DNA of 64,000 nt from a virus (IMGVR_UViG_2904150443_000004:1-64000); one strand, 5' to 3'. Positions 42,183 to 63,802 are shown, numbered from the stretch's first letter. Notes: a model not told the origin generated them from the letters alone. Numbers and translations are program-made.

Positions 42183-42788
42183 ATGAACAATAATGCAACA
42201 TATAGTAATGGTACTTGGAAAAAGGGACTCGGAACAGAACTTGAATTGATATACATAATTGAAACCACCAAATTTGATGAGGAAGTAGACAGAGATTTTA
42301 CCAACATCAAAAGATATGAGCGCAACAATATTCAAGAGGCAATCGACTTAATCAATCAATTCCAACAACATGGGTACAAAAACATTAACCTTATGACCCA
42401 GATCAATCATAACGGTGATACAATTCTAGAGGATTCGAGCGAAACAGGTATCGAATTTGCTGTTAATACATCAATCAATAAAGATTATAATGAAGTAAAT
42501 AAGCAAAAAGAATTATTAATGAATAATGAAAAACTGTTCAATGGGTTCATTGAAAAATATAAAGCAGAAAAGGCATTCATTGAGTTTAAAGACGAACAGG
42601 CAAACAATAGGGATGAACAGGGCTTACACTGGTACGAAATGCTGCTTCGTCCATTGTCTCCATATTGCCAACCAAATGGGCACATTAAATATGATGAGAC
42701 TAAAGGAAGACATGGAATTATTGCATATGATAGAGAATTAACCGCTAACGAATTAGAAGAGTATGAATTAAGAAAATGGATCTTATAA
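42183..42788 (+). CDS. protein with C-terminal DarA_C-like (defence-against-restriction) domain
   Basis: WYEMLLRPLSPYCQP.G...GRHGIIAYDRELT..EL..YEL pattern. Confidence 0.65.
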   Translation: MNNNATYSNGTWKKGLGTELELIYIIETTKFDEEVDRDFTNIKRYERNNIQEAIDLINQFQQHGYKNINLMTQINHNGDTILEDSSETGIEFAVNTSINKDYNEVNKQKELLMNNEKLFNGFIEKYKAEKAFIEFKDEQANNRDEQGLHWYEMLLRPLSPYCQPNGHIKYDETKGRHGIIAYDRELTANELEEYELRKWIL

Positions 42789-42882
42789 AATAAAGTATTG
42801 AAATAAACAAGACGTTTACTATGCATATATAAAGAAATATATTATAATATCACTATAAACAATAAAGGAGTGCTATTATATT

Positions 42883-43164
42883 ATGAAGCCATTAGACAAA
42901 GAAACACTCTTCAAACTCGTAAAAGGACTGATGAACAAAGGATTCTATGTTATATCAACACATGCAGAAGATCGCATGAAAGAACGTGGATTTACAAGGG
43001 AAGAGATCGAACACATACTGTTTAACCCTTGTGATCTTGTAGGTGAACCACGATATGATGAAGAATATAAAACATATAAATATAGAATTAAAAATGAAGA
43101 GAATAGAAGCGTAGTTGTCAGCATAGACTTTGATAATCTTGTAATAGTGGTAACAGTCATATGA
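42883..43164 (+). CDS. DUF4258-family RelE-fold putative toxin/RNase
   Basis: STHAEDRMKERGFT..EI, C-terminal VIVVTVI. Confidence 0.7.
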   Translation: MKPLDKETLFKLVKGLMNKGFYVISTHAEDRMKERGFTREEIEHILFNPCDLVGEPRYDEEYKTYKYRIKNEENRSVVVSIDFDNLVIVVTVI

Positions 43165-43209
43165 TTGTTGCCTTTTCTCTTTGCCGAGTGATATATTAAT
43201 GATCAAGAG

Positions 43210-43452
43210 GTGATACAAATGTTGGAGCAAGATAAGCAAGAACTAATTAACCTTGGTAAGCGAATGTTTTGCACAGAGTGTGGGAAGCGAGAACATGAGT
43301 TTACGACCATTAATAAAGAAGAAACGATTAACGGTAAAGTCTACACTATTCCTAACGTCCCTGTGATGCGTTGTAAGCATTGTAATGCTATTGCTTATCC
43401 ATCGTTTGCATTCGACCATATAGACGAATACAAAGAACAATTAAACCAATAG
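43210..43452 (+). CDS. YgiT/MqsA-type zinc finger protein (putative antitoxin)
   Basis: CTECG...IPNVPVMRCKHC; directly after DUF4258. Confidence 0.75.
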   Translation: MIQMLEQDKQELINLGKRMFCTECGKREHEFTTINKEETINGKVYTIPNVPVMRCKHCNAIAYPSFAFDHIDEYKEQLNQ

Positions 43453-43594
43453 GGAACGAATGGCCTTATTGGTTTTTCTTTTGAAAAATAATAATAGAAA
43501 ATAATAAAAATCATCTTATAACCACTTTACATATATAAAGATATATGTTATATTTAATTCAACGAAGGAAATGAATAAATATAAAAAGGTGGTA

Positions 43595-43696
43595 ATGAAG
43601 ATGAGCAGAACACAATTAATCGTTGCAATGTCAAAGATCCAAAGAAAGCAAGAAATTAAAAAGTTAACGGTTGTTGGTGCATTGCTCTCTAAGTAA
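43595..43696 (+). CDS. small basic peptide (33 aa)
   Basis: MKMSRTQLIVAMSKIQRKQEIKKLTVVGALLSK after AAGGTGG; promoter TTTACA-17-TATATT at 43526-43554. Confidence 0.4.
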   Translation: MKMSRTQLIVAMSKIQRKQEIKKLTVVGALLSK

Positions 43697-43743
43697 TAAA
43701 ACAAATAATTAAAAAACTATAATATACTAAAGGAGAAAATAAA

Positions 43744-44070
43744 ATGAAAAAAACATTTATCGTAGTATTCACACTTGTAATGATGATGATTAGCACGAAT
43801 GTTGTTAAGGCTGCTGAAGCAAATCAAGTTTCTACTAAGGTTGATTACATCTACTTTGATAAGACTTCGAAAGTGTATTATGCGGTATCTGTAAAAGATG
43901 CAGACGGTGGACATTGGGTAGTAGACTTGTTGTATTACGATACATATGACGAAGTACTGGAAAAGGCGCTTAACAAGTCTCTTAAAGGGAAGAAACTTAA
44001 AATCAGCTACGAAGGCAATCTGGAAACTGATGAGGAAGTGTTGATTGTCGAAAGTGAAATTGTAAAATGA
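43744..44070 (+). CDS. secreted hypothetical protein
   Basis: MKK plus hydrophobic signal peptide ending VKA; AAGGAG RBS. Confidence 0.7.
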   Translation: MKKTFIVVFTLVMMMISTNVVKAAEANQVSTKVDYIYFDKTSKVYYAVSVKDADGGHWVVDLLYYDTYDEVLEKALNKSLKGKKLKISYEGNLETDEEVLIVESEIVK

Positions 44071-44187
44071 CAAAAATAAAATATGGTTCTAGAAACAATA
44101 AAAAAAGTGAATGCAAGTGATGTGTTCCTTCCCCTCATTACTGAGGGGGAGGAGGATGCAAATAACTATAATAATGGAGGAGTTAAA

Positions 44188-44415
44188 ATGAACAAATCAA
44201 AAAGAGAAAGAAAGTTTAAAATTGGTGATGATGTTATTTGGACGAATTCAAATGGAGTGAATCTTGGTAAGCGAAAAATTATAGGATATGATACAAGGTC
44301 AGGTGAAACATATTTTGAATATACTTATTACATTGACCCAATTGATACACCTTGGTTTTCCATTGGTGAAAGTGAATTAAAGTTGTGTAATCCTTTAAAG
44401 CAAGAAAAAAACTAG
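44188..44415 (+). CDS. hypothetical protein (SH3/KOW-like, YorP-like)
   Basis: GGAGG RBS before MNKSK; KFKIGD.V motif. Confidence 0.6.
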   Translation: MNKSKRERKFKIGDDVIWTNSNGVNLGKRKIIGYDTRSGETYFEYTYYIDPIDTPWFSIGESELKLCNPLKQEKN

Positions 44416-44440
44416 AATATTCTGAATGGAGGAATAAAAA

Positions 44441-44599
44441 ATGCTGGTAGTTGATGCGAGTTTGTGGGGCGACTGGGACGAAATGTTCAAATATATACGA
44501 CAATTTAAAGATAAATGTAAAATTACAATTGTGAATGCTTCATATTTGTTAGAGGTTATGTATGGTGAAGAGTTAAGGGAATTAGGATTTATCAAATAA
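44441..44599 (+). CDS. hypothetical protein (52 aa)
   Basis: Read by hand: MLVVDASLWGDWDEMFKY...; GGAGG RBS. Confidence 0.55.
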   Translation: MLVVDASLWGDWDEMFKYIRQFKDKCKITIVNASYLLEVMYGEELRELGFIK

Positions 44600-44624
44600 A
44601 ATTAACATTCACTACGAAAGGACA

Positions 44625-44831
44625 GTGATTTTAATGAATAAGTTGAAGAAGAAAGTTATAAAACTACTTGAATCAAATGGGTACGATCTTGAAGTAGAAG
44701 GCCATATAATTTATACACCAAATTGTACAATTGAGATTCGTAATGATCAGATAACCGTTAATGAACAACCAATTGACTATAACAGTGATATTGATGAAAT
44801 ATATTACGCAGTTGCTGAAGTAGAGGGGTAG
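44625..44831 (+). CDS. hypothetical protein
   Basis: Co-oriented ORF in the early array. Confidence 0.6.
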   Translation: MILMNKLKKKVIKLLESNGYDLEVEGHIIYTPNCTIEIRNDQITVNEQPIDYNSDIDEIYYAVAEVEG

Positions 44832-44876
44832 TAAGCAAATCAAATTTTAATTATATTCGAACTTGGAGGAATCGGA

Positions 44877-45287
44877 ATGGCAATAGAAAATGTGTATGTA
44901 CAATTAGAAATTAATAAAGACACTGATGCAGTCCATATTGATAAGATGTTCTTAGCTCCAGATCTACAAGAGAATTATAACTATGACTTGAATTTGCACA
45001 AAGGTTATTCATGGGCTGATAAATTTGAAGTATTAGAAGGATATGAGTTGAAATTTATTTTACTAAAGGATGTAAATTATGACGGAAGAAAACGTAAAAT
45101 TACAGATAGCGATATTAAAATTAAATTGTCTGAATTAAATTTAGCTCAAATTCCCAAAGAACCATCGATGTTTGGATATTCGGCTAAGGCTACAGAGAAA
45201 TTAAAAGAATTAGTTTTAAACAACTTAGAAAAACGTAAACAGTTAATAGGTGAAGGTAAAATAATTAATTTAAAAGATATTGCATAA
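44877..45287 (+). CDS. hypothetical protein
   Basis: GGAGG RBS; co-oriented ORF. Confidence 0.65.
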   Translation: MAIENVYVQLEINKDTDAVHIDKMFLAPDLQENYNYDLNLHKGYSWADKFEVLEGYELKFILLKDVNYDGRKRKITDSDIKIKLSELNLAQIPKEPSMFGYSAKATEKLKELVLNNLEKRKQLIGEGKIINLKDIA

Positions 45288-45328
45288 TCAAATGAAATGT
45301 TATTTCAATATGATACGGAGGAATAAAT

Positions 45329-45643
45329 ATGGCGCGATTTAATGGAGTTGAGTTAACAGACGAATCAATTCAGAAAACTAGAAAATGGTTTGCCGATAAT
45401 GCAATAGCGTGTATCGAGGAAGTCAAAAGTGGAAAACAAAATGTAAATGATAGTGAAGCGTATTTTTCGTGGAGAAATGATCAAGCAAGAGAATACAAAG
45501 AAGGTCACAGTGATCACACTTTAACATTCTTGCAACGTGCATATTTTATTCAAAGTGGAGAATGCATAGCATTATTGCCTCAAACTATCAAACAGACAAT
45601 GAAATGTTACTTTCATATAAATAAAATAATAATTAAAGTATAA
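45329..45643 (+). CDS. hypothetical protein
   Basis: GGAGG RBS; flanked by AATGAAATGTTA direct repeats. Confidence 0.65.
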   Translation: MARFNGVELTDESIQKTRKWFADNAIACIEEVKSGKQNVNDSEAYFSWRNDQAREYKEGHSDHTLTFLQRAYFIQSGECIALLPQTIKQTMKCYFHINKIIIKV

Positions 45644-45651
45644 TAAATATA

Positions 45652-45680
45652 TTGACTTTATATTTATAAAGTTATATAAT
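45652..45680 (+). promoter_or_regulatory. repeated sigmaA early promoter
   Basis: TTGACT-17-TATAAT. Confidence 0.75.
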
Positions 45681-45726
45681 AATAATATAAAGAAAACACT
45701 CATATACATAGAGGAGGCTGTAATAA

Positions 45727-45930: not shown

Positions 45931-45980
45931 GACGGATGGAGGATTTATTGAGCTGCTACTAATATATAGGAGGAATAACA

Positions 45981-46193
45981 ATGGATTTCAAATTAGCTGT
46001 AAAATCATTGCCTGAAGGTGTTTCATATGACCCTATGGAACACACTTCAATATATGATTTAATATATTTGGTACAACATGAGTTAGATCTAATTGAGGAA
46101 GAGCCAGAACATTATAATCATTTATCAGTAAGGGAACTAAATAATCTTAAAATTAATTGCGGAAAATTTATAAGGAAATATCTATTATGTTGA
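45981..46193 (+). CDS. hypothetical protein
   Basis: AGGAGG RBS. Confidence 0.65.
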   Translation: MDFKLAVKSLPEGVSYDPMEHTSIYDLIYLVQHELDLIEEEPEHYNHLSVRELNNLKINCGKFIRKYLLC

Positions 46194-46350
46194 AATACTG
46201 TTTTCATTAATTCGATATATTACAAAAAATCAATAGTATTTATTGCTTATATTATAACGATTATGTGTTGAAATCTATTAGGTCATATGGTAATATATTC
46301 CTAGAAATACACAATCCAATACATCATACTATTTTGTAGGAGCGTGTAGA

Positions 46351-46788: not shown

Positions 46789-46849
46789 TTAAAAGTTAAA
46801 ACATTCTACTAAAGAAGAGATAGCAACGGAATTAAACATATTGTACATG

Positions 46850-48201: not shown

Positions 48202-48335
48202 TTAGGGTATGAAATAGTTCTTTTATAAGAAAATAATGGTTGACGCACATACGACATTGTGATAAATTGGATTTAGTAAGTCGTACATACGACAAATGCC
48301 AAGATATCAAATGATGATGAGAGGATGAAGAGAAT

Positions 48336-48752: not shown

Positions 48753-48781
48753 TTGACTTTATTTTTCTAAAGGGATATAAT
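48753..48781 (+). promoter_or_regulatory. repeated sigmaA early promoter
   Basis: TTGACT-17-TATAAT. Confidence 0.75.
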
Positions 48782-49100: not shown

Positions 49101-51368
49101 ATGTACTATGGAGATAAGAGAGAAGCAAAAGTAATGATCATGGAAAAGTTAATTGAAAACGGTTGGAAAGTGTATGGATATAAAGCAGATGAATCTGACT
49201 CGATGGTTGATTACTACTCTCCAGCTTCATGGGATGGAATCGCAGAAAAAAACGGATATGTTCTTGTTATCGATCAATACAATAATCGCCAATCTGGATA
49301 TCAAGTAAAAAAATATAATTATAATAACAAAAAATACATAGAAAATAAGAGGATTGCAAAACTAACTGCAATGATGAACGATTCAGCATCCACTGAAAAT
49401 GAAAAAGCTTCTTGTGCTGTGCTTATCGAAAAAGAGAAAGAAAAAGCAGGAGAGGGGCAAGAATATACAGTAATCGAAACTTACCCAACGTTTCAACATG
49501 GCAACCCTAAAGCCTGCTCATGGCACATTGAAAAAGATGGTCAAATTATTGCTAAGGGGAAAGGTGTATTTTCAGTTAATGAATACAATTGGGAAGATAA
49601 AACTAAAACAGCAGATGAACAAAAAGCAGAAAAACTAAATAAATTCGTTAAGAAAATTGAAAAAGTATTAACTGACTCGGATGCATTAAAATCTGAAGTA
49701 GTGAAAGTAGAAAAGACAGTTATTAAACCAGTTGAAAAGGAAGGAAAAACTATTAACATTGGTGACATCCTTTCTTTTTCGTATCATGGACATTATTGGA
49801 TTGTCAATGATGTTTATACAGTAGGTGAACAGATTCGCGTAACGTATGAGATTCTAGGAAGCGAAAAAAGAGGGTATCAACGTAAAAAAAATGCTAAGAG
49901 ATACTACCAACCAATGAACCGCCTTGAAAAAGAAATGCAAGAAGGGAGGGTAAAAGTTTACACATTACAAGAGGTAATCGAATATACAGAAAAAACTGTA
50001 TTCACTAAAACAAAACGTTCTCAGAAAGTTACTAATGCTATTCAGCTTGAAACACAAGAAGCATATGACACACAAACACAAGACCCAAAAGAGAATAATG
50101 CTACGGATCAAGAACAAGCTTCTAAACGTCAACTGTGGGCTTTACATTGTGCCACAAGATTAAATACAACTAATCTAGTCATTAGTAAACAGAAGGCCAG
50201 TGATTTGATTAGCAAATCGAAGGCAGGTCAAAATATTGTTGAAGAAATTGAATTTATGATGAATATCGATGATAGCAACAATGAAGCTAAAGTAAGTCAA
50301 ACAACCGAAAGTAAAAAGCAACACGATCAAACAAATTTCATTGAAAAAATTGATAAACAGATCGAGTCAGCCCAAATTAAATTAGATTCTTTATCTGGTA
50401 ATTATAAAACAAATACGTGGAAACGGCAGCAAGAAGAAGTCGGTAGAGAAATGAAACGTAATTCATTGCGTTTTGATATTTCTTTGCTTGAGTATCTTAG
50501 AAATAAAGCTACATTGAACGAAATGACTAATTTTGAGCAATGTCTTTTAGTTGGATCTTTTCGTGATCAGATACAGAATTATTCAATACAGAAATATGAA
50601 TATAAATATCCTGAAATTGATACTCGTTTTGATTTAAATAACTGGTATAATGCTGAAATACCTAAAAAGCAAAAAAGACTGCAAAAGGCAGGGATATATA
50701 ATACTCATCAACTGATTGAAGCAGTAGAAGAATATAAAATTATTAAAGATAAAATACAAAGACCTATTGATCCAATCAAAGTAAAAATCAAGAAACTGGA
50801 ATCAAATGTGAAATTGGTTAAAATTTATGGATATTTTCCTACACCTGCGAACATTGTTAATCAAATGATTGAATTGGCAGATTTAAGAGACGGAGAAATA
50901 GTTCTAGAACCGTCAGCAGGCAATGGCAATATACTAGATGGAATAACCGTCCATGCACAAGAAAATGGTTTAGAATTGAAATTAGAAGCGATTGAACGGA
51001 ATCATACTTTATCAGAAATATTAAAATTGAAAAACTATAATGTAATTTCAGATGACTTTATAACATATGAATGCGAAATAAAATATGATAAAGTTATTAT
51101 GAATCCACCATTTGAAAAGAATCAGGATATTGAACATGTATTACATGCTTACAGTTGCTTAAAAGATGGAGGTAAATTGATTGCTATCATGTCGCCTCAT
51201 TGGACATTTGCAAATGACGCTAAAAGTATACATTTCCGAAGTTGGTTAAGTGACAAAGGATATTATGAAAAGCTCCCAGATGGTTCATTTAAAGAGTCAG
51301 GAACAGGGGTGAATACTATATTAGTTGTGATTGAAAAAATTGAAATCGAAGCATCTGAAGCCGTTTAG
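49101..51368 (+). CDS. large multidomain protein with C-terminal N6-adenine methyltransferase (DarB/polyvalent-protein-like)
   Basis: YFPTP, VLEPSAGNG (SAM binding), MNPPF (catalytic), FKESGTGV.T. Confidence 0.82.
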   Translation: MYYGDKREAKVMIMEKLIENGWKVYGYKADESDSMVDYYSPASWDGIAEKNGYVLVIDQYNNRQSGYQVKKYNYNNKKYIENKRIAKLTAMMNDSASTENEKASCAVLIEKEKEKAGEGQEYTVIETYPTFQHGNPKACSWHIEKDGQIIAKGKGVFSVNEYNWEDKTKTADEQKAEKLNKFVKKIEKVLTDSDALKSEVVKVEKTVIKPVEKEGKTINIGDILSFSYHGHYWIVNDVYTVGEQIRVTYEILGSEKRGYQRKKNAKRYYQPMNRLEKEMQEGRVKVYTLQEVIEYTEKTVFTKTKRSQKVTNAIQLETQEAYDTQTQDPKENNATDQEQASKRQLWALHCATRLNTTNLVISKQKASDLISKSKAGQNIVEEIEFMMNIDDSNNEAKVSQTTESKKQHDQTNFIEKIDKQIESAQIKLDSLSGNYKTNTWKRQQEEVGREMKRNSLRFDISLLEYLRNKATLNEMTNFEQCLLVGSFRDQIQNYSIQKYEYKYPEIDTRFDLNNWYNAEIPKKQKRLQKAGIYNTHQLIEAVEEYKIIKDKIQRPIDPIKVKIKKLESNVKLVKIYGYFPTPANIVNQMIELADLRDGEIVLEPSAGNGNILDGITVHAQENGLELKLEAIERNHTLSEILKLKNYNVISDDFITYECEIKYDKVIMNPPFEKNQDIEHVLHAYSCLKDGGKLIAIMSPHWTFANDAKSIHFRSWLSDKGYYEKLPDGSFKESGTGVNTILVVIEKIEIEASEAV

Positions 51369-51531: not shown

Positions 51532-52371
51532 ATGTTCGTTTCTCCAATGTTACTACAGTACACAGAAAACAATCTTCCTTTTGATAGTCCAAACCACGCT
51601 GCCGAATTGAAGTTTGATGGATTTAGGCTTGTATTATCTAAAATGGATCAGGTTAGATTATATACACGGCACAATAACGAAGTAACCACGACCTTTTCTG
51701 AGTTACTTGAGATTGATTTACCCAATAATACAATACTAGATGGTGAAGTTATATTAACAGACAATCAAGGGAAGCCAGATTTTGAAGAGCTACAAAAGAG
51801 ATTCAAGTCTAAACGTGATAAGCGTAAAGTCACATTTGTTGCATTCGACATTGTTATGTATAAGGGTGTTGATGTTACAGGCTTGCCATTGTTCAGACGA
51901 AAGGAATTGCTTGAGGAAGCCTTTCCAGAATCAGATAGACATACTAAGAGTAGATTCATGACAGGAAGCCCAGTAGACGTCTTTGAGGTCGTTAAAGGAG
52001 CCATGCTCGAAGGCATTGTAATCAAGAATATAAATTCGACTTACAAAGTAAATAAGCGTTCATGGGATTGGCAAAAGGCAATAAATTGGACATATGCTGA
52101 TGTGCATATCACAGGTTATAGAAAAAATGAGTTTGGATGGTTAACATCGATCATAACTGAGAATGGAACGTTAAGGCCAGTTGGTATTTTAGAGTTGGGG
52201 GTTTCCCCAGATCAAAAGAAAGAGTTTAACCGTGTGAAAAAGAAATTGGCTTATAAAGAAGATAATAATTATGTTTATATGGAGCCATTTGTTAAAGCCA
52301 GAGTAAAGACTCGAAACTGGACTAAGAATGGTATGTTAAGATCGCCAGCAATGGAATCATTTATTTTATGA
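51532..52371 (+). CDS. ATP-dependent DNA ligase (SPbeta LigB/YoqV-like)
   Basis: ELKFDGFR motif I, LDGE, AFDI, EGIVIK. Confidence 0.9.
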   Translation: MFVSPMLLQYTENNLPFDSPNHAAELKFDGFRLVLSKMDQVRLYTRHNNEVTTTFSELLEIDLPNNTILDGEVILTDNQGKPDFEELQKRFKSKRDKRKVTFVAFDIVMYKGVDVTGLPLFRRKELLEEAFPESDRHTKSRFMTGSPVDVFEVVKGAMLEGIVIKNINSTYKVNKRSWDWQKAINWTYADVHITGYRKNEFGWLTSIITENGTLRPVGILELGVSPDQKKEFNRVKKKLAYKEDNNYVYMEPFVKARVKTRNWTKNGMLRSPAMESFIL

Positions 52372-53494: not shown

Positions 53495-53692
53495 ATGAGA
53501 GTATTTATGATTGATGGAGAAAAATACACTACTTTCGAATACGGAATGTACATGCTAGATAAGACCTTTTCTGAAGGTAATGGGATTCTTGATCCTAAAG
53601 TAATGACGCATGATGAAATATCTGCATGGGGATTAGGATTCATTCTTGTTCAATTAAGTGAACGTGATGATATTGAAGAAATTGTATCATAA
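53495..53692 (+). CDS. hypothetical protein
   Basis: GGAGGTG RBS. Confidence 0.6.
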   Translation: MRVFMIDGEKYTTFEYGMYMLDKTFSEGNGILDPKVMTHDEISAWGLGFILVQLSERDDIEEIVS

Positions 53693-53740
53693 AAGGGTTA
53701 TTTCATAGGGTAAAATTAAAAGAGATTGGAGAGCTAATAA

Positions 53741-54085
53741 ATGAATGTTTATGAACTCATTTGGTTACATGGCAAGAAAGAATTTGTTATTGGAAATGAT
53801 ATCTCAGATGCCATAAATAATGCAGGAATCGGCAGAGGAGCTTTACAAGCACTGGACTATTGGAAAGAGGTCAGCGAGTTACCAGATCATTTGAAGAAGT
53901 TTGAAATCGTATCTGACAATGGAACCACTGATGAAATTTTTAATCCAAGCTTCATAAATAAGTTGAATGAAACGAGTTTTGAAGTTGGTTCTATCACTGA
54001 GATAAAACTAAGTACCCTGATATTCAAATATCAATTTATTGGTAAGTCAAAAACTGGATATCAATATAAGCAAATAGCATCATGA
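53741..54085 (+). CDS. hypothetical protein
   Basis: GGAG RBS. Confidence 0.6.
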   Translation: MNVYELIWLHGKKEFVIGNDISDAINNAGIGRGALQALDYWKEVSELPDHLKKFEIVSDNGTTDEIFNPSFINKLNETSFEVGSITEIKLSTLIFKYQFIGKSKTGYQYKQIAS

Positions 54086-54122
54086 TTCTAAATGAAATGA
54101 CTGTTTGATGGGAGGACTTACA

Positions 54123-54978: not shown

Positions 54979-55752
54979 ATGAAAGGAAATAATAATATGA
55001 ATATACATATTCCTATTGATTGGGGAAGTTATATTATTTCTATTCCACTGATATTGGCGACAGTGTGGGCAGGCTTAAGGTTCTTGGCAAAAAAATATGT
55101 TGAACAAGAGTTCTCTAAAAGAATAGAAAATCACAAACACGATTTGAATTTATTAGTAGAGGCCAATAAATTTGATATTCAAAGAAAGATGTATGATTTC
55201 AATTTGTATACGACTAAAAGGCACGAAACATATATGAAGTTGTATAATTTATTTTTAGAAGCATCAAGCCGAGTAAGTAGATTTCAAGGGATCAGGCAAA
55301 TACCAGATTTTAAAAATTTCTCAAATGAAGTAATAGCGGAATATTTAAGACGTTTTAATCTGTCAGAAAGTGAATGGTTAACTATTGCTGAAAACTGGAA
55401 TAACGGAACAGATCCATACTTAGTTAAAAAAGTAGAGAGTTATTACAATATAAACGAAGTTAGGGAAATGGAGGCCGCTTATGTAAAAGCTAAAAACGAA
55501 TATTTATTAACTCGTTTATACTTGTCAAAGAAAGTAGAAAGCATATGCTTGATCTTATCTTCAAAATTGACAGAAGCTTTACTTGAGCTAGAAGAAATAT
55601 ACGATATAAACTATATTGAACAAGATATTAATTTAACCGAGTCACGAAAAAACTTAAGAAAAATACACGATGATATTAATTTGCATAGTCTAGAGTTAAA
55701 AGATGAAATGCAAAAAGAATTGTCAATTGGATATTACGACAATACAAAATAA
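54979..55752 (+). CDS. membrane-anchored helical hypothetical protein
   Basis: N-terminal TM segment followed by a helical domain. Confidence 0.65.
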   Translation: MKGNNNMNIHIPIDWGSYIISIPLILATVWAGLRFLAKKYVEQEFSKRIENHKHDLNLLVEANKFDIQRKMYDFNLYTTKRHETYMKLYNLFLEASSRVSRFQGIRQIPDFKNFSNEVIAEYLRRFNLSESEWLTIAENWNNGTDPYLVKKVESYYNINEVREMEAAYVKAKNEYLLTRLYLSKKVESICLILSSKLTEALLELEEIYDINYIEQDINLTESRKNLRKIHDDINLHSLELKDEMQKELSIGYYDNTK

Positions 55753-55914
55753 AAGACATGTTTCATTATATATAAAATCACATAATTTAGATTATGTTCC
55801 CTTTATGTTCGGTTGTATTACACAACCGAATTTGCTATATTTAGATTAAGAAGAATAGACGCCGCAAAGATTACAAAGATGGCGCAAATTGATGAAGAAG
55901 AGAGGATGATAAGA

Positions 55915-56277
55915 ATGAAAAAGGAAAATTTCGAAAATGGGGTTATTATTAATTCGGAAGCTGCTTTACAATATTTACTCGGCAAAAGTAGTATCGATGC
56001 AGATGGTGGTCATTACATACTTGACATTCAAGACGAAGGGGAAGAAATCGCAATTACTGTTGATTATACGCGTACAGTTGCAGATGCCGAGTATCACGTT
56101 CTTGGAACGAATTGTGTTTTCAACGTAACATACTCAACTGACAGATACTCTCAGAATCATTTCTCATTTGAAGTGCTCATCAATGACTTGCACGAGCAAC
56201 ACTTGGATGAAGTTGAAGCTTGGTTGTACGAAGCGGTACTCAAATACGGAGAGATGGAGGGTTCAGAAAATGATTAA
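55915..56277 (+). CDS. hypothetical acidic protein
   Basis: GAGGA RBS; upstream perfect inverted repeat at 55808-55830. Confidence 0.6.
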   Translation: MKKENFENGVIINSEAALQYLLGKSSIDADGGHYILDIQDEGEEIAITVDYTRTVADAEYHVLGTNCVFNVTYSTDRYSQNHFSFEVLINDLHEQHLDEVEAWLYEAVLKYGEMEGSEND

Positions 56278-56944
56278 AGAAAACACATTGGTTCCTGGGT
56301 TAATTCCGACTTTGGAAAAAGTCGTCTACACTTATCAATACAGGTATAGTGATAGCCGCGAATGGAAATATCACGAATACGCGTTTCTTCCAGAAGAGTT
56401 GACACCGGATATTTCACCATATTCACTGGGGGAAAAGCTATATCGGGAAATGCGATGTGCGGAAACACGGTATCTAGAACAGAAAAGGTACGCCTATATC
56501 ACATGTTCAGAATGCGGGCATAAGGTACTCGTCAATAGAGATGGATGGACAAAATGTGATGAGTGCAAAACGTACTTCGAACAGTTCAAACATGTGGATG
56601 AACTGTTCTATCCAAGAACTTTATTAAAAAAGTATGAGGAAGAGGTTAAGAACCTTCTAAGTGAAGATGACGAATTTTTGCAAGACATAGAATGTGATGA
56701 TGACTGCTCCGTTACATTCAGTGTGTCTGCTACCCGATACAAGAATAAATGGGCTATGTATGTATGGGTTAACGAAAATTATGATGACCCAGAAGATGAG
56801 GCTTACTCTTACAACCATAGTCATGTGTATTGGATTGGAGAATTCCAACCGCGTCACTGGATTGGTGAGTGCGTTAGTACTGTACCTAACTTGGACAGGT
56901 ACATGAAGTACGTGAACAGTTTAAACGATGTACAAGAAATATAA
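56270..56944 (+). CDS. zinc-ribbon hypothetical protein
   Basis: GGAGG RBS; CSECG...CDECK. Confidence 0.6.
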   Translation: MIKENTLVPGLIPTLEKVVYTYQYRYSDSREWKYHEYAFLPEELTPDISPYSLGEKLYREMRCAETRYLEQKRYAYITCSECGHKVLVNRDGWTKCDECKTYFEQFKHVDELFYPRTLLKKYEEEVKNLLSEDDEFLQDIECDDDCSVTFSVSATRYKNKWAMYVWVNENYDDPEDEAYSYNHSHVYWIGEFQPRHWIGECVSTVPNLDRYMKYVNSLNDVQEI

Positions 56945-57067
56945 AAAGCAGCCATAGGCCGGCTGCTCCTCTCGGTGGTTCTTTCGTTAATCCTCATAGG
57001 TACGATAAAAGGGCCACCGATCCCTTGTGCACGTATTTATATTACCATAAAGGGAAGATGTGTACAA

Positions 57068-57265
57068 ATGAAAATTGTTGAGTTTGTTGGTGCAGCTGCA
57101 TTTGCCAAAATGCTCGGCACGTCACAGCAAAACGTTAGCAAGTCTGGAAAACGAGCGCTTGATCCAAACTATCGCGGCGATTTCTTGAGGCCGGACGCTA
57201 TATGCGAAGGTCGTCCGCTTTGGCTTAAGGAAGAAGCTGAAAAGTTTGCAAGGAGTGAGTTTTAA
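57068..57265 (+). CDS. small HTH DNA-binding protein
   Basis: VGAAAFAKMLGTSQQNVS HTH; RPLW motif. Confidence 0.65.
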   Translation: MKIVEFVGAAAFAKMLGTSQQNVSKSGKRALDPNYRGDFLRPDAICEGRPLWLKEEAEKFARSEF

Positions 57266-57997
57266 ATGAATCACAAAAGCGCAATCACCGATGAGGTTAG
57301 AAATAGGATAGTTAACCTGTTGAGGGGTGGTCATACAATAGTCAAAATCGAAGAGTTGACTGGTGTCCATCGAACGACTATTTTTAAGATAAAATGCAAA
57401 CTTGGATTGGTGAAAAACTACAAAAGTTTTACTTGCCTGAGTAAGAAAAAAGTCCGCGACATTCAAAGAGATCTTGATAATTTAGATCGACAGCCTAATA
57501 GTGACGATATAAAACGACTTTCTAAATTGCATGACGTTTCGGAGCCAAACATACTAAAGGTCATAAAGGAAGGGATTAATGCGGTATCAAAAGTACGCCC
57601 TCTCAAACCGCAGAAAATACAGATGATATACAAATCCCTTGAAGAAGGGAAGCAATCAGAGGAAATAATAGAAAAAACAGGTGTTTCGAGAACAACACTG
57701 GTGTATTACAGGGAACGATACAATCGCGGAAAAGATATTAGGGTATGTGCATCTTCTGATTGTGATAATACATTCTTACCACGACTGGATGGAAAGCCGA
57801 AGCTATATTGCTCCACGCGCTGTCGCGATCGCGAGAAACAGCGTAGATATAGATCATTATACTCAAAACAAAATCGGTGTCCACAATGTGGTGGTGAATG
57901 GGTCGAGCCCAACGAGACATACCGAGGAAAGCCAAAGCATTGCCTAAATTGTCAAGAGTATTACCATTTGAGATATGAAAAGAATAAAGATGTTTAG
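57266..57997 (+). CDS. multi-HTH protein with C-terminal zinc fingers
   Basis: Two GVxRTT HTH motifs; C..C...YCS.RC and CPQCG...CLNC. Confidence 0.65.
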   Translation: MNHKSAITDEVRNRIVNLLRGGHTIVKIEELTGVHRTTIFKIKCKLGLVKNYKSFTCLSKKKVRDIQRDLDNLDRQPNSDDIKRLSKLHDVSEPNILKVIKEGINAVSKVRPLKPQKIQMIYKSLEEGKQSEEIIEKTGVSRTTLVYYRERYNRGKDIRVCASSDCDNTFLPRLDGKPKLYCSTRCRDREKQRRYRSLYSKQNRCPQCGGEWVEPNETYRGKPKHCLNCQEYYHLRYEKNKDV

Positions 57998-58173
57998 TTA
58001 TTGCCATTATATGAAAGTGGAAACTAAATACTGAATTTTGTATATAAACACAAATTGGGCTCACAGCTCTATTGTGTTTTTTTGTTTATTCAAATGACAT
58101 TATATGATCACAGAACATGTATTATGTCAAGGATTTTGTTTTTTATTTTAAATTTCTTGACTATATGAATAAT

Positions 58174-58261: not shown

Positions 58262-58660
58262 ATGACTGACAGAGTTGTTCAATATAAGAGAGATGATATT
58301 TGGTTGGCAGATTTGGGTGGATCAGCTGGTTCTGAGCAAGGTGGAATTAGACCTGTATTATTGATTTCGAATGATATTGGGAACCGCTTTAGCCCTGTAG
58401 TTATCGGTGCTGTAATTTCTTCTGCAACTACTAAAAAGAGAATGCCAACACATGTAAGTCTGCCAGCCAACAGGCATGGGTTAATTAAAGACAGTTTTGT
58501 TGGTACTGAACAATTAAAGACAATTGATAAATGGTGTCTGATTGAAAAATTAACAACAATAGATGAAGAGACTATGGACGAAATAAACGAAGCATTGATA
58601 TTAAGCTTAGGACTGAGAGATTACATAGATAAAAAATATATAAAGAGAAAGGATGTATAA
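58262..58660 (+). CDS. mazF: PemK/MazF-family endoribonuclease (no upstream antitoxin)
   Basis: GSEQGGIRPVLLISNDIGNRFSP...EQLKTIDK, close to B. subtilis NdoA; catalytic Arg kept, Thr position is Ser. Confidence 0.9.
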   Translation: MTDRVVQYKRDDIWLADLGGSAGSEQGGIRPVLLISNDIGNRFSPVVIGAVISSATTKKRMPTHVSLPANRHGLIKDSFVGTEQLKTIDKWCLIEKLTTIDEETMDEINEALILSLGLRDYIDKKYIKRKDV

Positions 58661-58817: not shown

Positions 58818-58907
58818 TCTTACATAAGTCACTCGATCATTAATGTAGATTGAGTGACTTTTTAATTTTAATATAAAAGAAAATACTAAAAATATCTGTT
58901 TTATATA

Positions 58908-58936
58908 TTGACTTTATATAAGTAAAGATGTATTAT
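58908..58936 (+). promoter_or_regulatory. repeated sigmaA early promoter
   Basis: TTGACT-17-TATTAT with extended TG. Confidence 0.65.
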
Positions 58937-59166
58937 CATATTAAGGCCGACAGGCAAGATAATCCAGATAATTAAAAGTAAAATAATTTAATAGTAATCA
59001 ATAAACGGAGGTGTTAATTAGTGTATAAAAATGGTAGACTTATTGACGGGAAATTATACATACATACAAAAATGGGTAACAGAATAAATCTAAAATTGTT
59101 CAAGGATGAGCATCTGAACAACTAATGAAACTATGTTTTTATAAGGAGAAAAATGAGGAGTGCAAA

Positions 59167-59394: not shown

Positions 59395-59417
59395 AAGATT
59401 ATTTAGAGAGGTGTAAA

Positions 59418-59669: not shown

Positions 59670-59699
59670 CATGAAGCATTCAAAAGGAGACTGATAATT

Positions 59700-59957: not shown

Positions 59958-59979
59958 TATTAAAAAAGGTGGTGGAAAT

Positions 59980-60336
59980 GTGAGCAAGAATAATTTTGAA
60001 GTGGGTAAGAAAGTATATTTGTCACTAGGAATTAACAAAAGTAGATATAGTAGTGTGGATTATGTTGAAGGTGAAGTAACAAAAGTAGGTAGAAAGTATG
60101 TCACTGTTAAAATAGGGATTACCCAATATCAGTTTGATCTCACAGATAATCTAAGACAAAAGACGGATTACGCAGAAGATTACTATCTCTACGAATCCCT
60201 AGAAGAATTGTTAGATGAAAAAAGAAGAGAAGAATTAGCTCGACATTTGAGCGTGTATTTCTCAGGCTCCTATAATATAAAGAACAAGCTAACGTTAGAT
60301 CAAATGCAGCGAATCAAGGATATTATTTCTGAATAA
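59980..60336 (+). CDS. KOW/SH3-like beta-barrel hypothetical protein
   Basis: EVGKKVY...VTKVGRKY motif. Confidence 0.6.
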   Translation: MSKNNFEVGKKVYLSLGINKSRYSSVDYVEGEVTKVGRKYVTVKIGITQYQFDLTDNLRQKTDYAEDYYLYESLEELLDEKRREELARHLSVYFSGSYNIKNKLTLDQMQRIKDIISE

Positions 60337-60353
60337 AATGATCCTTTCAAGAG

Positions 60354-60605
60354 GTGATTGGTATGAAATTTAATTTTGAAGATTCAGAAGAATTAAAGCC
60401 AGTTTCGTGGATCGATGTTTGGTATGACAGAAGACAGAGACTATGGACAGCGATACTAAAGAATGATGATGATTTTCAAATAGGTGATGCTGAATATGGT
60501 TCAAAAAGTGATATAGGAGCTATAGTGGAATCTTGGATTAACGAATATGAATTAGATAGAACATACATCTCAAAAAAACAAATCCAACAAAAGAAAAGAC
60601 ACTGA
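60354..60605 (+). CDS. hypothetical protein
   Basis: Co-oriented ORF; GAGGTG RBS (start probably 60363). Confidence 0.6.
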   Translation: MIGMKFNFEDSEELKPVSWIDVWYDRRQRLWTAILKNDDDFQIGDAEYGSKSDIGAIVESWINEYELDRTYISKKQIQQKKRH

Positions 60606-60648
60606 GATTAATCACAGCATTTTAGATGAAATGAATATTTGATGGGGA

Positions 60649-61038
60649 GTGAGTAATGTGGATTATAAGTTTCGTATAGTAAGCACAATGGAGATTACAG
60701 GTGAAGTGGACAATGAACAGTATCAGATTAATGAAGGGGAAGAGTTAATTATTCAGTCTCAATCAATTGATAAATTAAAGTGGTTCGTATTTATTCCATC
60801 TATTGAAAAGTTTGATTACATAGAAAAGTATAAGATTGATTTACTAATTACAGATTACATATTCTATCCGCAATATTACGGAGAATTTCAATTGCCAGTG
60901 ATTAGTGATAACATCCACACTTACGCATTTATCACCCCTAGTGGATATGTTCAATGTGCATCAAAGAAAGATATAATCGAATTAAAATCATACAAGGAGG
61001 TACAGCGAATTAGCAGTGATGAGATTCGATTTAAATAA
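60649..61038 (+). CDS. hypothetical protein
   Basis: Co-oriented ORF. Confidence 0.55.
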   Translation: MSNVDYKFRIVSTMEITGEVDNEQYQINEGEELIIQSQSIDKLKWFVFIPSIEKFDYIEKYKIDLLITDYIFYPQYYGEFQLPVISDNIHTYAFITPSGYVQCASKKDIIELKSYKEVQRISSDEIRFK

Positions 61039-61067
61039 AAACAATTCTTTGAATAGGTGATAACAAG

Positions 61068-61577
61068 ATGGATGAGAGAATAATTTTCGACACGCACACA
61101 GAGAACCTAAAACGTGAGTTAAACGTTGATCCCTTAGTTTTCTTTGGTGATGAAGCGAAAGAAAAAACTAAAAAATATGGTTCAATATTTCATGGAGCTC
61201 ATGTTTGGGAAGAAGAGTCTGAGTTTGTGGCTGTAAAGGACATAAATCAGATAGGGACTCTTGCACATGAGATGCGTCATAGTTGGCAGTACAAGAATAA
61301 AGACAAAGAGAACTATATATTTCGAAGCAGTAAAGACAAGCCATGGATAATAAGAAAACTAATACGAGCTTTATATTTAATATATTACCCGTTTAATAGA
61401 AAAGAATTGGATGCCAATAAGTATGCAGTTGAATATTGCACAAAAACAGGTTTACAAGCTGAAGTATTAAGAATTGAAAAGCTAATAACGGGAAATAGAA
61501 TAGCACAAGTAATCACTTTAGCAGCACATCTATTATTTTTTTATTTGATATACCTCATTTGGATTATTGTTAAATGA
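61068..61577 (+). CDS. HExxH zinc metallopeptidase-like membrane protein
   Basis: TLAHEMRHSWQ...ELDAN.YA; C-terminal TM helix. Confidence 0.7.
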   Translation: MDERIIFDTHTENLKRELNVDPLVFFGDEAKEKTKKYGSIFHGAHVWEEESEFVAVKDINQIGTLAHEMRHSWQYKNKDKENYIFRSSKDKPWIIRKLIRALYLIYYPFNRKELDANKYAVEYCTKTGLQAEVLRIEKLITGNRIAQVITLAAHLLFFYLIYLIWIIVK

Positions 61578-61779
61578 TATTAATAGGGAGAGAAAAAATG
61601 AGAAAAACTGGAAAGAAACTATTGATAGTTTGGGTACATTTCCACAGCGTCAAGACTCAGTAGTAGAACAACTAGAGGATTTAGTTTACGTTGCTAATAA
61701 ACTAGGCTTTTACGATGCAGCTGACATTATAAAGGTAATGGCAATTAGAGAGCATAGAAAAGCTTTTAAAAGTGAATAA
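61567..61779 (+). CDS. hypothetical protein; start uncertain, possible frameshift
   Basis: The RBS-associated ATG at 61598 is one base out of frame with the ORF body. Confidence 0.45.
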   Translation: MLNDINRERKNEKNWKETIDSLGTFPQRQDSVVEQLEDLVYVANKLGFYDAADIIKVMAIREHRKAFKSE

Positions 61780-61828
61780 AAAGATTATTATATTTGCTTT
61801 GATTACAGAAGGGAGAAAATGATAAGGA

Positions 61829-62515
61829 TTGAAAAGTAAAAAATGTACAAAATGTGGTGAAGAGTTACCTAAAAATGAAGAGTACTTCTATAAACAACTG
61901 GTAAGATGCCAAAGGAAATCAGATTACTATAAACTAACATCATGGTGTAAAGACTGTTCTAAGAAAAATACTAAAAATAACATCGATAAAGATCGAGAGG
62001 GTTTTTATAAAAGACAAAAACCATACCAAGATGCAAATCAAGGCATAAGAAATAAGCGTGCTAGAGATTGGAGAGTCAATAATCCAGATAGAAATCGAGA
62101 TAATCAATCAAATTATTATATTAGAGAAAAAGATTCTGGTAGATTTAAAATGTATTACAGTAATAGAAAAAAGAAAAATCATAAAATATCAGCAGAAGAG
62201 TGGGAACATAATAAAAGATATTTTAATTACAAATGTGCATATTGTGGCATGAAACTAGAAGAACATTATAGGCTTTATGCTGGAAAATTACAAAAATACG
62301 ATTTTCATAAAGAACATTATGATGACAACGGAGCTAATGATCTTAGTAACTGCGTCCCAAGTTGTGGAAGTTGCAATAGTCAAAAATGGGAATTTGAAAT
62401 TGGAGAATGGTATAACGAAAGCAATCAAAAATATTCAGAAGAACGCTTTAGTAGAATTATTAAATGGATAAAAGAAGATTATATATTTTACATAGAAGGT
62501 AAAGATAAAATGTAA
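61829..62515 (+). CDS. HNH endonuclease
   Basis: CTKC...CKDC; CAYCG...EH...NCVPSCGSCNSQK. Confidence 0.85.
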   Translation: MKSKKCTKCGEELPKNEEYFYKQLVRCQRKSDYYKLTSWCKDCSKKNTKNNIDKDREGFYKRQKPYQDANQGIRNKRARDWRVNNPDRNRDNQSNYYIREKDSGRFKMYYSNRKKKNHKISAEEWEHNKRYFNYKCAYCGMKLEEHYRLYAGKLQKYDFHKEHYDDNGANDLSNCVPSCGSCNSQKWEFEIGEWYNESNQKYSEERFSRIIKWIKEDYIFYIEGKDKM

Positions 62516-62589
62516 AAGTAAATGCTTCTATGATATATAGAGCAAATGAAAGGATTCTTTTACTTGAAATGAAAAAACGGGGGAGTTAG

Positions 62590-62820
62590 ATGTTTGAGGA
62601 GAAGACATTGTATTCAATCGTTGAAAAAGCTAAAAAATATGATGAATTAATTAAATTTCCTAGTACGGATAAAGAGGTGTCATGTTCGTTTTGTGGCAAA
62701 TCACAAACTTCCGTAAAGAAAATCATTACAAACCACGAAGTTTCAATATGTAATGAATGCATAGAGTTATGCGTAGAGATTTTATCAGAACAAGAAAATG
62801 ACAGCGATAAAACAGAGTGA
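62590..62820 (+). CDS. stand-alone ClpX C4-type zinc finger protein
   Basis: [13 protein letters not shown]......[12 protein letters not shown] matches the ClpX N-terminal ZBD. Confidence 0.85.
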
Positions 62821-63095
62821 AAGAAATTCTTTATCAAGAATTAGAGGTAACAAGAGAAAAAGTAGTGAGACACAGGGAAAAATATTATGCAAAAGAGATT
62901 ACGTCTTTTGAGCAGCTAAACGAACTTAATAATAGAGCAGAAGTTGCTATCATGAACAATTGTAATATGGTTGTAGGCCGAATTATGTATAGAGAAAAAA
63001 ATTGGATATTGATTGATGTAGTAACTGGGACTGTTTCAGTAAATGAAGATAGTTTTAGGCATGGTAATTTTATGTATGAACTTGAACTATATTAA
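62817..63095 (+). CDS. hypothetical protein
   Basis: GTGA overlap with the upstream stop. Confidence 0.5.
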
Positions 63096-63122
63096 AAAAT
63101 GGATCTATTACAGGAGGTAAAA

Positions 63123-63299
63123 ATGAGCGTAAGAACTACATATGATGAAAAGAGAGACATACTGAAGAAAACATTACAAGAGTGCTTAGAGCAAGCAAGG
63201 GAACTTCTTGATGAAGATATCTGGGGCTATGAAGAGATGAGAGAGGGATATGCTTTAGATGTGTATGTAGCGGTGAAAAAAGCGAAGGATACAGTCTAA
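63123..63299 (+). CDS. hypothetical protein
   Basis: AGGAGGT RBS before MSVRTT. Confidence 0.55.
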   Translation: MSVRTTYDEKRDILKKTLQECLEQARELLDEDIWGYEEMREGYALDVYVAVKKAKDTV

Positions 63300-63504
63300 T
63301 TAAAGTTGTAATAAAAGATGTTCAAAGAAAAGGGTGATACATTTGGGTTGGAAAATCAAATTTATTGAGAATTTTGAGGATTATAAAATAGGAGATACAT
63401 TAGAGTGTGATGAAATGGGCTTACCATTGTTTTATTGCGGCATGATGAAAGTGGCAATACGAATAGAATAAGAAAATGAAAGAAGTATTTTATAACAAAA
63501 GGAG

Positions 63505-63759
63505 TTGCTAATCGATATGAATAGATTAAATTATTATAGTGATAACGATGAAATGACTTTAGATGAAGAAATGTTGTACAATCAGGCATTAAGCACAGTA
63601 AAGATCATTGAAGAAAACGTGAGATTAAGAAGGGAAAATAAGAGACTTATGAACAAAGTCGCTGACAATGAAGAGTGGACTAATCAACAGTTACAAGAAA
63701 ATATTAAGTATGCTGGTAATCTACTTGACTCACTTATTAAGAAATCGGATACTAAGTAA
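63505..63759 (+). CDS. hypothetical coiled-coil protein
   Basis: AAGGAG RBS; start approximate. Confidence 0.55.
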   Translation: MLIDMNRLNYYSDNDEMTLDEEMLYNQALSTVKIIEENVRLRRENKRLMNKVADNEEWTNQQLQENIKYAGNLLDSLIKKSDTK

Positions 63760-63802
63760 AATATGTGTATTATGAAGTAAATTCCGTTATAGGAGGGCTA
63801 AT

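Follow-up and report, generated by a model that had tools for sequence, protein, structure and literature searches.

Background

Tyrosine-type site-specific recombinases act at core sites made up of two inverted arms around an overlap of 6-8 bp, and an asymmetric overlap, identical in the two partners, sets the direction of the reaction. We report here on a short inverted repeat of comparable build, ATRAAA-N6-TTTYAT, which recurs between genes in a 64,000-nucleotide stretch of viral DNA (IMGVR_UViG_2904150443_000004:1-64000, referred to below as the window), which opens a provirus record of 146,367 bp that does not include the host chromosome (G000, referred to below as the provirus). As in the generic core site, the repeat has inverted arms and a 6-bp spacer, a combination that forms the top inverted-repeat class in both the provirus and phage SPbeta; its six-base centre is asymmetric (none of 340 sites is palindromic, against 7.5 expected), and the same centres stand at matching positions in partner phages. 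Our reading, which we hold to be slightly more probable than its negation, is that the copies are centre-specific recombination joints for the in-place exchange of gene cassettes.

Shared arms with a matched spacer are the logic of tyrosine-recombinase overlaps and also of engineered recombinase-mediated cassette exchange, in which spacer variants of lox or FRT recombine only with like spacers and a cassette is swapped in place. The laboratory design uses few variants, whereas the phage system would be a natural one with at least 60 variants per genome.

In integrons, an IntI-type integrase gene lies beside attI and the Pc promoter that heads the array, and the attC sites are imperfect palindromes of about 57-141 bp that are recognised as folded single strands. 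Like integrons, the phage locus has co-oriented single-gene units bounded by an imperfect palindrome, and a tyrosine recombinase is suspected. The phage sites differ from attC in being only 16-18 bp long and in giving no sign of folded single-strand recognition, the R and Y letters showing no covariation between the arms. They are spread over the whole 146 kb rather than gathered in one array, and the cassettes appear to be replaced in place between fixed addresses, not inserted at one site in any order. The first-pass annotation of this DNA had called the arrangement integron-like, a description that does not fit short double-strand palindromes. Neither attI nor Pc was seen in the provirus, though no search was aimed at attI, Pc or the IntI-specific extra domain.

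Xer/dif sites have two 11-bp arms, bound by XerC and XerD, around a 6-bp central region. The pdif/dif modules of Acinetobacter plasmids resemble the phage locus in that many short sites flank one or a few adaptive genes in an accessory region and that gene modules occur in varied contexts (Mindlin et al. 2019, PMC6449649). The 6-bp centre is alike in the two, but the phage arms measure 5-6 bp and not 11, and the phage centres are unique in each genome and follow one order from phage to phage. The PeSLs of T4-type phages are likewise small repeated intergenic elements in plastic regions, at which related phages differ by insertion, deletion or replacement of genes, as here (Arbiol et al. 2010, PMC2839356). 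A PeSL, however, combines a strong promoter with a terminator stem-loop, and PeSLs recombine with one another (PMC2839356). The phage motif has neither of these parts, is conserved over 16 bp only, and is distinct in each copy.

Stoperators are asymmetric sites. In cluster A mycobacteriophages they resemble the motif in being short, numbering dozens per genome and lying for the most part in narrow gaps between genes and away from promoters (Mavrich and Hatfull 2019, PMC6550527). They share a single 13-bp consensus that is oriented with transcription and bound by the immunity repressor (PMC6550527), whereas the arms of the phage motif are symmetric and its centre is different at each copy and conserved by position. 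SPBRE of SPbeta and Phi3TRE of phi3T, the operators of MrpR/SroF, are repeated elements of the same phage group bound by a protein of tyrosine-recombinase fold (PMC10516654; bioRxiv 10.1101/2025.11.27.690993). SPBRE is longer than the motif, has a different sequence, and occurs in about ten copies in promoters.

The provirus and its relatives

The provirus is an SPbeta-like phage, though a distant one. Its homologue of the YonO RNA polymerase (34466-37054, minus strand) is 51% identical to SPbeta YonO. Genes outside the window encode a YopQ homologue, an MrpR/YopR repressor homologue (28% identity, about 73.9-74.9 kb), a homologue of DNA polymerase YorL (60%) and one of an SprA-type serine recombinase (24%). 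A gene for an ATP-dependent DNA ligase (51532-52371) lies inside the motif-bearing gene array.

Seven genomes were compared, namely the provirus (G000), five records of YonO-encoding relatives (G001-G005) and SPbeta; two of the records are incomplete. The YonO proteins are 60-62% identical to that of the provirus in four of the relatives' records and 58% in the fifth, and 62% is the best value among its YonO relatives. Two accessory proteins of the provirus had no relative in viral_contigs, and its ligase reached no more than 47% identity over the full length in genome_contigs, where one partial match of about 100 residues reached 62%.

Form, number and spread of the motif

The window has 12 exact copies of the motif, where 100 dinucleotide shuffles average 0.31 (maximum 2); when one mismatch was allowed there were 22 copies against 5.76 (maximum 13). 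The first-pass annotation had claimed an enrichment over chance from a rough estimate, and these counts bear it out. All 19 positions listed in it hold the sequences given there, and its five exact copies have no mismatch at the 12 fixed positions. Its nine near copies also stood, with one mismatch in six and two in three, whereas its five weaker copies have 2-4 mismatches and are indistinguishable from chance. One exact copy within its own range, at 63476, had escaped it.

In the whole provirus there are 44 exact 18-mers, against 3 for a reversed control pattern, and six of the exact copies in the window lie at 29-26960. The motif is therefore genome-wide and not a feature of 42.8-63.8 kb, to which it had been assigned; it is merely denser where the genes are small.

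The core TRAAA-N6-TTTYA has 62 copies in the provirus, where 30 simulations under a first-order Markov model average 5.2, and 36 copies in SPbeta. The base before the core is A in 55 of the 62 provirus copies and the base after it is T in 50. A weaker extension of the arms out to about 11 bp is visible among the SPbeta copies; in the provirus and between phages, conservation extends over no more than 5-6 bp of each arm. When 5-mer inverted repeats with spacers of 0-12 were counted blindly, TGAAA with a spacer of 6 came top in the provirus (16 against 1.1 expected) and TAAAA with a spacer of 6 came top in SPbeta (34 against 2.35). The shuffles and the control patterns rule out chance or base composition as the origin of the motif.

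All five relatives' whole records contain core copies, in numbers of 67, 42, 39, 67 and 27, against 7, 3, 5, 7 and 7 for the control. The enrichment was modest in the yonO neighbourhoods of 80 relatives (64 copies in 1.52 Mb, against 21 and 5 for two controls), because that part of the genome is poor in sites, and whole records were therefore used. By these counts the motif is a feature of the clade. No description of it was found in the literature searched, though Lazarevic et al. 1999 (the SPbeta sequence) or supplements may mention it; the available parts of PMC10516654, PMC5467207, PMC8270828, PMC5730154 and bioRxiv 10.1101/2021.11.22.469490, 10.1101/2023.05.01.538930 and 10.1101/2025.11.27.690993 do not describe it.

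Position between genes and action as DNA

The core centre is intergenic in 45 of the 62 provirus copies, while 10.3% of the genome is non-coding in the crude gene model used (binomial p = 4.5e-31), in agreement with the earlier claim that the motif sits at gene junctions. Many copies provide the stop codon of the upstream gene (TAA or TGA at positions 2-4) and lie 10-40 nucleotides ahead of the next start codon. Most copies stand between a stop codon and the next ribosome-binding site, unlike the promoter-placed SPBRE.

Such a position within operons would also suit an inter-cistron RNA hairpin serving as a signal for processing, stability or translation. The stem of that hairpin would have only 5-6 A-U pairs, and the distance from the copy to the start codon ranges from about 11 to more than 40 nucleotides. 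The R and Y letters of the arms showed no covariation (Fisher p = 0.21 in the provirus), and the most frequent combination was A..C, which would be mispaired in the sense RNA (20 of 62 copies in the provirus, 26 of 39 in G003). We concluded that an RNA hairpin is ruled out by the absent covariation and the sense-direction A..C excess, and we leave this explanation almost no probability at all. Because the arms do not covary, the sites act as double-stranded DNA, with half-sites that are read independently, as by a symmetric protein.

A promoter element was likewise ruled out. Promoter-like sites in the region number 95, against 98.1 in shuffles, so there is no excess, and the four strongest plus-strand ones in 44.0-64.0 kb (45652, 46906, 48753 and 52441) do not overlap the motif.

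The six-base centres as addresses

Among 340 exact sites from the seven genomes, there was not one duplicate centre within a genome, not one reverse-complement pair and not one palindromic centre. Column-preserving shuffles gave means of 4.9 duplicates, 4.0 reverse-complement pairs and 7.5 palindromes, and none of 2,000 shuffles reached a total of zero. If like recombines only with like and in one direction, then unique and asymmetric centres are needed.

The centres are also shared between phages. The provirus has 8, 11, 5, 3, 0 and 1 centres in common with G001, G004, G003, G002, G005 and SPbeta, respectively, where the null means are 0.7-1.6, and the total of 28 in the same orientation compares with 7 for reverse-complemented and 4 for reversed controls. 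Six consecutive shared centres form a collinear run, at 60.3-71.6 kb in the provirus and 64.4-55.2 kb in G004, and the centres shared with G003 are in perfect rank order (Spearman -1.0). The genes flanking a shared site on either side lack detectable homology in 27 of 27 cases.

We scanned IMG/VR for the site with centre TGATCC (60333 in the window) and obtained 101 loci, of which 80 were listed; by a rough estimate, chance alone would give about as many matches to a 16-mer in IMG/VR. In 16 of these loci and in the provirus one order was found, CTATAT/CTATAA/CTATGT, TGATCC, TGAATA, AGATTA, GGATTC, GAAGTA, TAAGTC, GGTTTA, with occasional members missing among the 16, the address list having been taken from the same loci on which the order was then tested. 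In the window the series runs through 59126, 60334, 60627, 61777, 62547, 63477 and 63981. Its spacing is variable (194-1218 bp between TGATCC and TGAATA). When all copies of an address were aligned, only the 16-mer was conserved, with no flanking column reaching 80%, and the R and Y arm letters varied freely among copies of one address.

Unique non-palindromic centres in a fixed order would also suit assembly by sticky ends, in which a nuclease cuts inside the centre, leaves cohesive ends specific to each junction, and a phage ligase such as that encoded at 51532-52371 rejoins them in order. The ATP-dependent ligase gene in the array, and a ligase-like gene of SPbeta annotated as LigB, are consistent with this. 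A candidate nuclease was not identified, cutting at 60 or more places would be very costly, and the scheme is purely conjectural; we regard it as very improbable.

Gene replacement and homology breakpoints

Proteins encoded between the same two addresses are mostly unrelated across phages. Slot by slot, we counted 14 families in 15 phages, 13 in 14, 8 in 12, 12 in 13, 10 in 12 and 8 in 9.

Base-level comparison was made between SPbeta 82.5-100.5 kb and Goe13, SPbetaL4, phi3T, SPbetaL2 and SPbetaL8. Of the 58-72 homology ends per phage, 17-27 fell no farther than 12 bp from a motif centre, where about 3% would be expected at random. Homology starts clustered at -8 to -12 from the centre and ends at +8 to +10; the entire 16-mer is part of both the left and the right block. 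A breakpoint was present at 10 of 11 motif-bearing junctions and at 9 of 27 motif-free ones (Fisher p = 0.003), a comparison that controls for a preference for gene boundaries. Four centres are common to all six phages of the SPbeta kin, in the same order. For pairs of these phages sharing a centre, neither flank was alike in 42 cases, only the right in 25, only the left in 24 and both in 20, the flanks having been compared ungapped over 60 bp so that a small indel could mask likeness; the BLAST breakpoint result is independent of that.

In the provirus the comparison was made at the level of genes. Sites avoid conserved adjacencies: of the 22 junctions that a relative retains, 2 bear a motif, and of the other co-oriented junctions 64 of 176 do (Fisher p = 0.009). 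The ends of orthologous genes tend to agree in whether they have a site, which was present in both partners in 33 cases, in one only in 50 and 57, and in neither in 284 (Fisher p = 1.8e-5). The sites are thus fixed joints that outlast the genes on either side of them, and we hold with good confidence that they are joints of gene exchange.

Three claims of the first-pass annotation, that the sites mark gene exchange, that the 6-bp centre matters and that the units between sites are mostly single genes, find support in these comparisons. Its notion that the cassettes are shuffled does not, for the centres keep a fixed order across phages, and the genes are therefore replaced in place and not reordered. 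The cassette-exchange idea is supported in a changed form, addressed and in place rather than integron-like.

Breakpoints at the motif and differing slot contents would also be expected if the motif were a short conserved linker used by general or phage homologous recombination, or by template switching, with no dedicated enzyme. Modular shuffling mediated by PeSLs in T4-type phages is a precedent (PMC2839356), and yorG of SPbeta is annotated as a Sak4-like annealing protein. The identity is limited to 14-16 bp, however, with flanks that are not conserved. A stretch of that length seems too short for ordinary homologous recombination. Moreover, a linker has no need of shared palindromic arms or of avoiding palindromic centres, and the sites are not accompanied by a promoter or a stable stem-loop. 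We consider a mere linker improbable, though by no means negligible.

According to the mechanism that we favour, the inverted arms (TRAAA and TTTYA, usually with an outer A or T) would be recognised by a symmetric protein, and the six bases between them would serve as a position-specific address, one for each gene junction. When two phages, or a phage and a prophage, meet, copies with the same address would cross over, and the gene or genes between two neighbouring addresses would be replaced while order and orientation stay undisturbed. The most likely chemistry would be that of a tyrosine-type site-specific recombinase that needs identical, asymmetric 6-bp overlaps in both partners. That a centre-matching tyrosine recombinase acts at the sites is a possibility to which we give somewhat less than an even chance.

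Relation to SPBRE and to a binding protein

SPBRE, the element located upstream of the MrpR ChAP-seq (chromatin affinity purification sequencing) target genes in SPbeta, is AAATACAAAWAATATGTAT. Kohm et al. reported ten MrpR ChAP-seq peaks, all at SPBRE promoters (PMC10516654), and the repressor box has been described as a longer promoter element of about 24 bp (bioRxiv 10.1101/2025.11.27.690993). Regular expressions of the SPBRE form found 6-7 copies in SPbeta and one unrelated match per pattern in the provirus; by this search the SPbeta form of SPBRE is absent from the provirus. A frequent-word search for an SPBRE-like element in the provirus returned only A/T-rich words of promoter regions. 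The identity of the motif with SPBRE was ruled out, the two having different sequences and SPbeta carrying both.

The motif might nevertheless be where a dimeric DNA-binding protein docks to regulate or silence transcription within operons, as at a stoperator-like roadblock or an operator. The protein could be the MrpR/YopR-like repressor (about 73.9-74.9 kb), an alternative that the first-pass annotation had also raised, and the link with gene exchange would then be a by-product of a conserved site. Palindromic arms with independent half-sites, dozens of intergenic copies in co-oriented gene arrays, the presence of an MrpR-like protein in all seven genomes and the absence of the SPbeta form of SPBRE from the provirus are all consistent with such a role, and cluster A mycobacteriophages have 20-30 repressor sites that mostly lie outside promoters (PMC6550527). 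Against it, SPbeta has 36 motif copies in addition to SPBRE, a different and promoter-placed sequence at which all ten reported MrpR peaks fall (PMC10516654), so that the operator alternative is disfavoured. A pure operator, moreover, needs no unique, asymmetric and positionally conserved centre, and docking does not predict that homology ends at both edges of the motif. We judge docking as the sole function to have a low probability. It is compatible with exchange joints, as a bound recombinase might also hinder transcription.

Three plus-strand promoter-like sites, at 45652-45671, 48753-48772 and 58908-58927, share TTGACTTTAT-N-TTT-N-TAAAG, that is, a -35 box followed by the spacer palindrome CTTTAT...ATAAAG. 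This spacer palindrome could be the operator of the provirus's own repressor, in place of SPBRE.

A further observation concerns yorM of SPbeta (NC_001884). Its annotated coding sequence (110881-111597) contains, near 111028, a copy of the motif with a ribosome-binding site after it. The region upstream of the annotated yorM contains no SPBRE, though the gene is listed among the ChAP-seq targets. The annotated start of yorM may be too early.

Candidate recombinases

Two proteins of the tyrosine-recombinase family are predicted in the window:

37228-38256, plus strand, YopP-like tyrosine recombinase, candidate enzyme (Pfam Phage_integrase and SAM-like domains)
16160-17173, minus strand, YomM-like tyrosine-recombinase-family protein, second candidate (Pfam), among tail genes

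The YopP-like protein is 30% identical to SPbeta YopP and retains the catalytic residues. In its family of 24 members, drawn from the provirus, the six other genomes and yonO-neighbour loci, the residues R, K, H and Y are invariant and the second His position is H in 22 and W in 2. These residues were assigned from motif positions and weak alignments to IntI4 and HP1 integrase, in which HxxR and GH align (E = 0.22 for IntI4; E-values of 0.2-0.3 are weak). The gene yopP is reported to belong to the core genes and to be active in lysogens (bioRxiv 10.1101/2021.11.22.469490). The YomM-like protein is 63% identical to SPbeta YomM, and the provirus copy has HxxK in place of HxxR.

YopP-like and MrpR-like proteins each occur in 7 of the 7 genomes and YomM-like proteins in 5, two of the records being incomplete, and for these reasons the candidates are not separable by co-occurrence. 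We regard the YopP-like protein as the leading candidate enzyme, with host Xer proteins or the YomM-like protein as alternatives; taken by itself, the proposal that the YopP-like protein is what acts at the sites is rather unlikely to be correct.

Observations that weigh against exchange at matched centres

Several observations weigh against the reading of the sites as centre-specific exchange joints, or limit it. Some concern the sites. The conserved arms of only 5-6 bp are shorter than those of well-studied tyrosine-recombinase core sites, which have arms of 7-13 bp. Two exact copies in the window (5976 and 21378) lie within long open reading frames (ORFs), and the gene calls of the provirus, on which placement was scored, come from a crude ORF model. 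Within the YopP-like family, Arg II is R in 16 and K in 8 of the 24 members, and Lys is found in the SPbeta protein too.

Others concern the addresses. In the provirus alone the shuffle mean in the test of centre uniqueness was 2.8, and 280 of 5,000 shuffles gave zero, which is weak power. Loci for the order and slot counts were picked by their having at least 3 motif copies, of which there were 20 among those listed, and four were set aside: L182 and L206 (giant-virus bins with no series addresses), L237 and L196. L237, a phage record with 12 copies, has TGATCC amid quite different addresses, and L196 has CTATAT and TGATCC followed by a different centre. In addition, a 114-residue protein of the provirus (53741-54085, plus strand), which lies between GGGTTA and TGACTG, is 51% identical to one that lies between GGATTC and GAAGTA in the relative G004 (L168). 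A homologous cassette thus stands in different slots, and the addresses are not absolutely tied to cassettes.

The remaining points concern the provirus as a test case. Megablast and blastn found no match to it at the DNA level in the phage collection. Because it has no close relative in the collections searched, base-level breakpoints are available for the SPbeta kin only, and for the provirus itself the support consists of addresses and genes. The only sequencing run containing this DNA, as contigs and probably its source, had no alternative joints, which says nothing either way; among RNA runs none is listed as containing it.

Motif copies and neighbouring features in the window

The copies in the accessory gene array and the conserved series are as follows:

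43504..43521, near copy ATAAAA-ATCATC-TTATAA, intergenic, 1 mismatch to the 16-bp core; centre in motif context in 9 of 187 other records indexed
45599..45616, exact copy ATGAAA-TGTTAC-TTTCAT, with the -35 of a strong promoter-like site (45652-45680) lying 36 bp downstream; centre in 8 other records
46190..46207, TTGAAA-TACTGT-TTTCAT, 16-bp core exact, overlapping the stop of ORF 45981-46193
48209..48226, exact copy ATGAAA-TAGTTC-TTTTAT, intergenic
53689..53706, exact copy ATAAAA-GGGTTA-TTTCAT, whose TAA at positions 2-4 is the stop of ORF 53495-53692; centre differs by one base from the relatives' address GGTTTA
54092..54109, near copy ATGAAA-TGACTG-TTTGAT, intergenic; centre in motif context in 12 other records
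55749..55766, exact copy ATAAAA-GACATG-TTTCAT, whose TAA is the stop of ORF 54979-55752
58887..58904, near copy TAAAAA-TATCTG-TTTTAT, intergenic
59125..59142, exact copy ATGAAA-CTATGT-TTTTAT, opening the conserved address series (CTATAT or CTATAA in relatives)
60333..60350, ATAAAA-TGATCC-TTTCAA, 16-bp core exact, address TGATCC
60626..60643, near copy ATGAAA-TGAATA-TTTGAT, address TGAATA
61776..61793, near copy ATAAAA-AGATTA-TTATAT, address AGATTA
62546..62563, ATGAAA-GGATTC-TTTTAC, 16-bp core exact, address GGATTC
63476..63493, exact copy ATGAAA-GAAGTA-TTTTAT, address GAAGTA
63980..63997, near copy ATGAAG-TAAGTC-TTTCAC, address TAAGTC, the final series member within the window

The remaining exact copies lie in the first part of the window:

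29..46, exact copy in the late-gene arm, genes on the minus strand
4383..4400, exact copy, intergenic, 33 nucleotides ahead of a minus-strand start codon
5976..5993 and 21378..21395, exact copies, each within a long ORF
14947..14964, exact copy, 23 nucleotides ahead of a minus-strand start codon, within an ORF of the crude model
26943..26960, exact copy adjoining the stop of a 1040-residue ORF (26960-30082, minus strand)

The copies at 5976 and 21378 may be due to chance or may have another role. The copies at 45292-45309 (TGTTAT) and 45599-45616 (TGTTAC) flank an ORF of 104 residues (45329-45643); they are the only near-duplicate pair of centres noticed in the window and may have arisen when a site was duplicated locally. 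A region beyond the window, at about 77379-77440, has an exact copy (77379) and, within about 20 nucleotides after it, what looks like the start of a tRNA gene.

Some neighbouring genes were also recorded. At 58262-58660 (plus strand) Pfam finds a PemK/MazF-like toxin domain (E = 6.3e-28) in the product of an accessory gene. In phi3T, the arbitrium system reportedly works via the MazE-MazF pair of the host (PMC10769878), and a phage-borne MazF-like gene in the array may be of interest given this link. An island richer in GC (0.40-0.46, against about 0.30 in its surroundings) extends over about 55850-58000 and starts right after the exact site at 55749; no good motif site was seen at its end near 58000. 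It contains a gene (57266-57997) whose product has a resolvase-type helix-turn-helix and a CGNR zinc finger, and it looks like a recent arrival from elsewhere. A 201-residue protein (42183-42788, plus strand) and the N-terminal part of a 755-residue protein (49101-51368, plus strand) both match phrog_27491, which may reflect partial duplication or a shared domain.

Implications

The arrangement may amount to a natural form of recombinase-mediated cassette exchange, with at least 60 sites per genome that have shared arms and distinct asymmetric overlaps, an ordered address map and a dedicated tyrosine recombinase, the YopP-like protein being the candidate; we put this forward tentatively, as a proposal nearer to even than to remote. 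Single accessory genes, including anti-defence genes, might in that case be swapped between phages while the order of the genome is kept, which we likewise regard as possible without quite expecting it.

If true, this would explain how large temperate phages of the Bacillus type renew their accessory genes fast while keeping a stable layout, and it would add a new kind of site-specific gene exchange alongside integrons and Xer-dependent modules. The role of the conserved tyrosine-recombinase-like genes yopP and yomM would be directly testable in a model organism, and ordered DNA assembly might profit in practice from a natural collection of mutually exclusive recombination sites, dozens in number. 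Should the sites turn out to have no enzyme acting on them, the address map still provides new coordinates for comparing the mosaic genomes of these phages and for finding the slots of their anti-defence genes.

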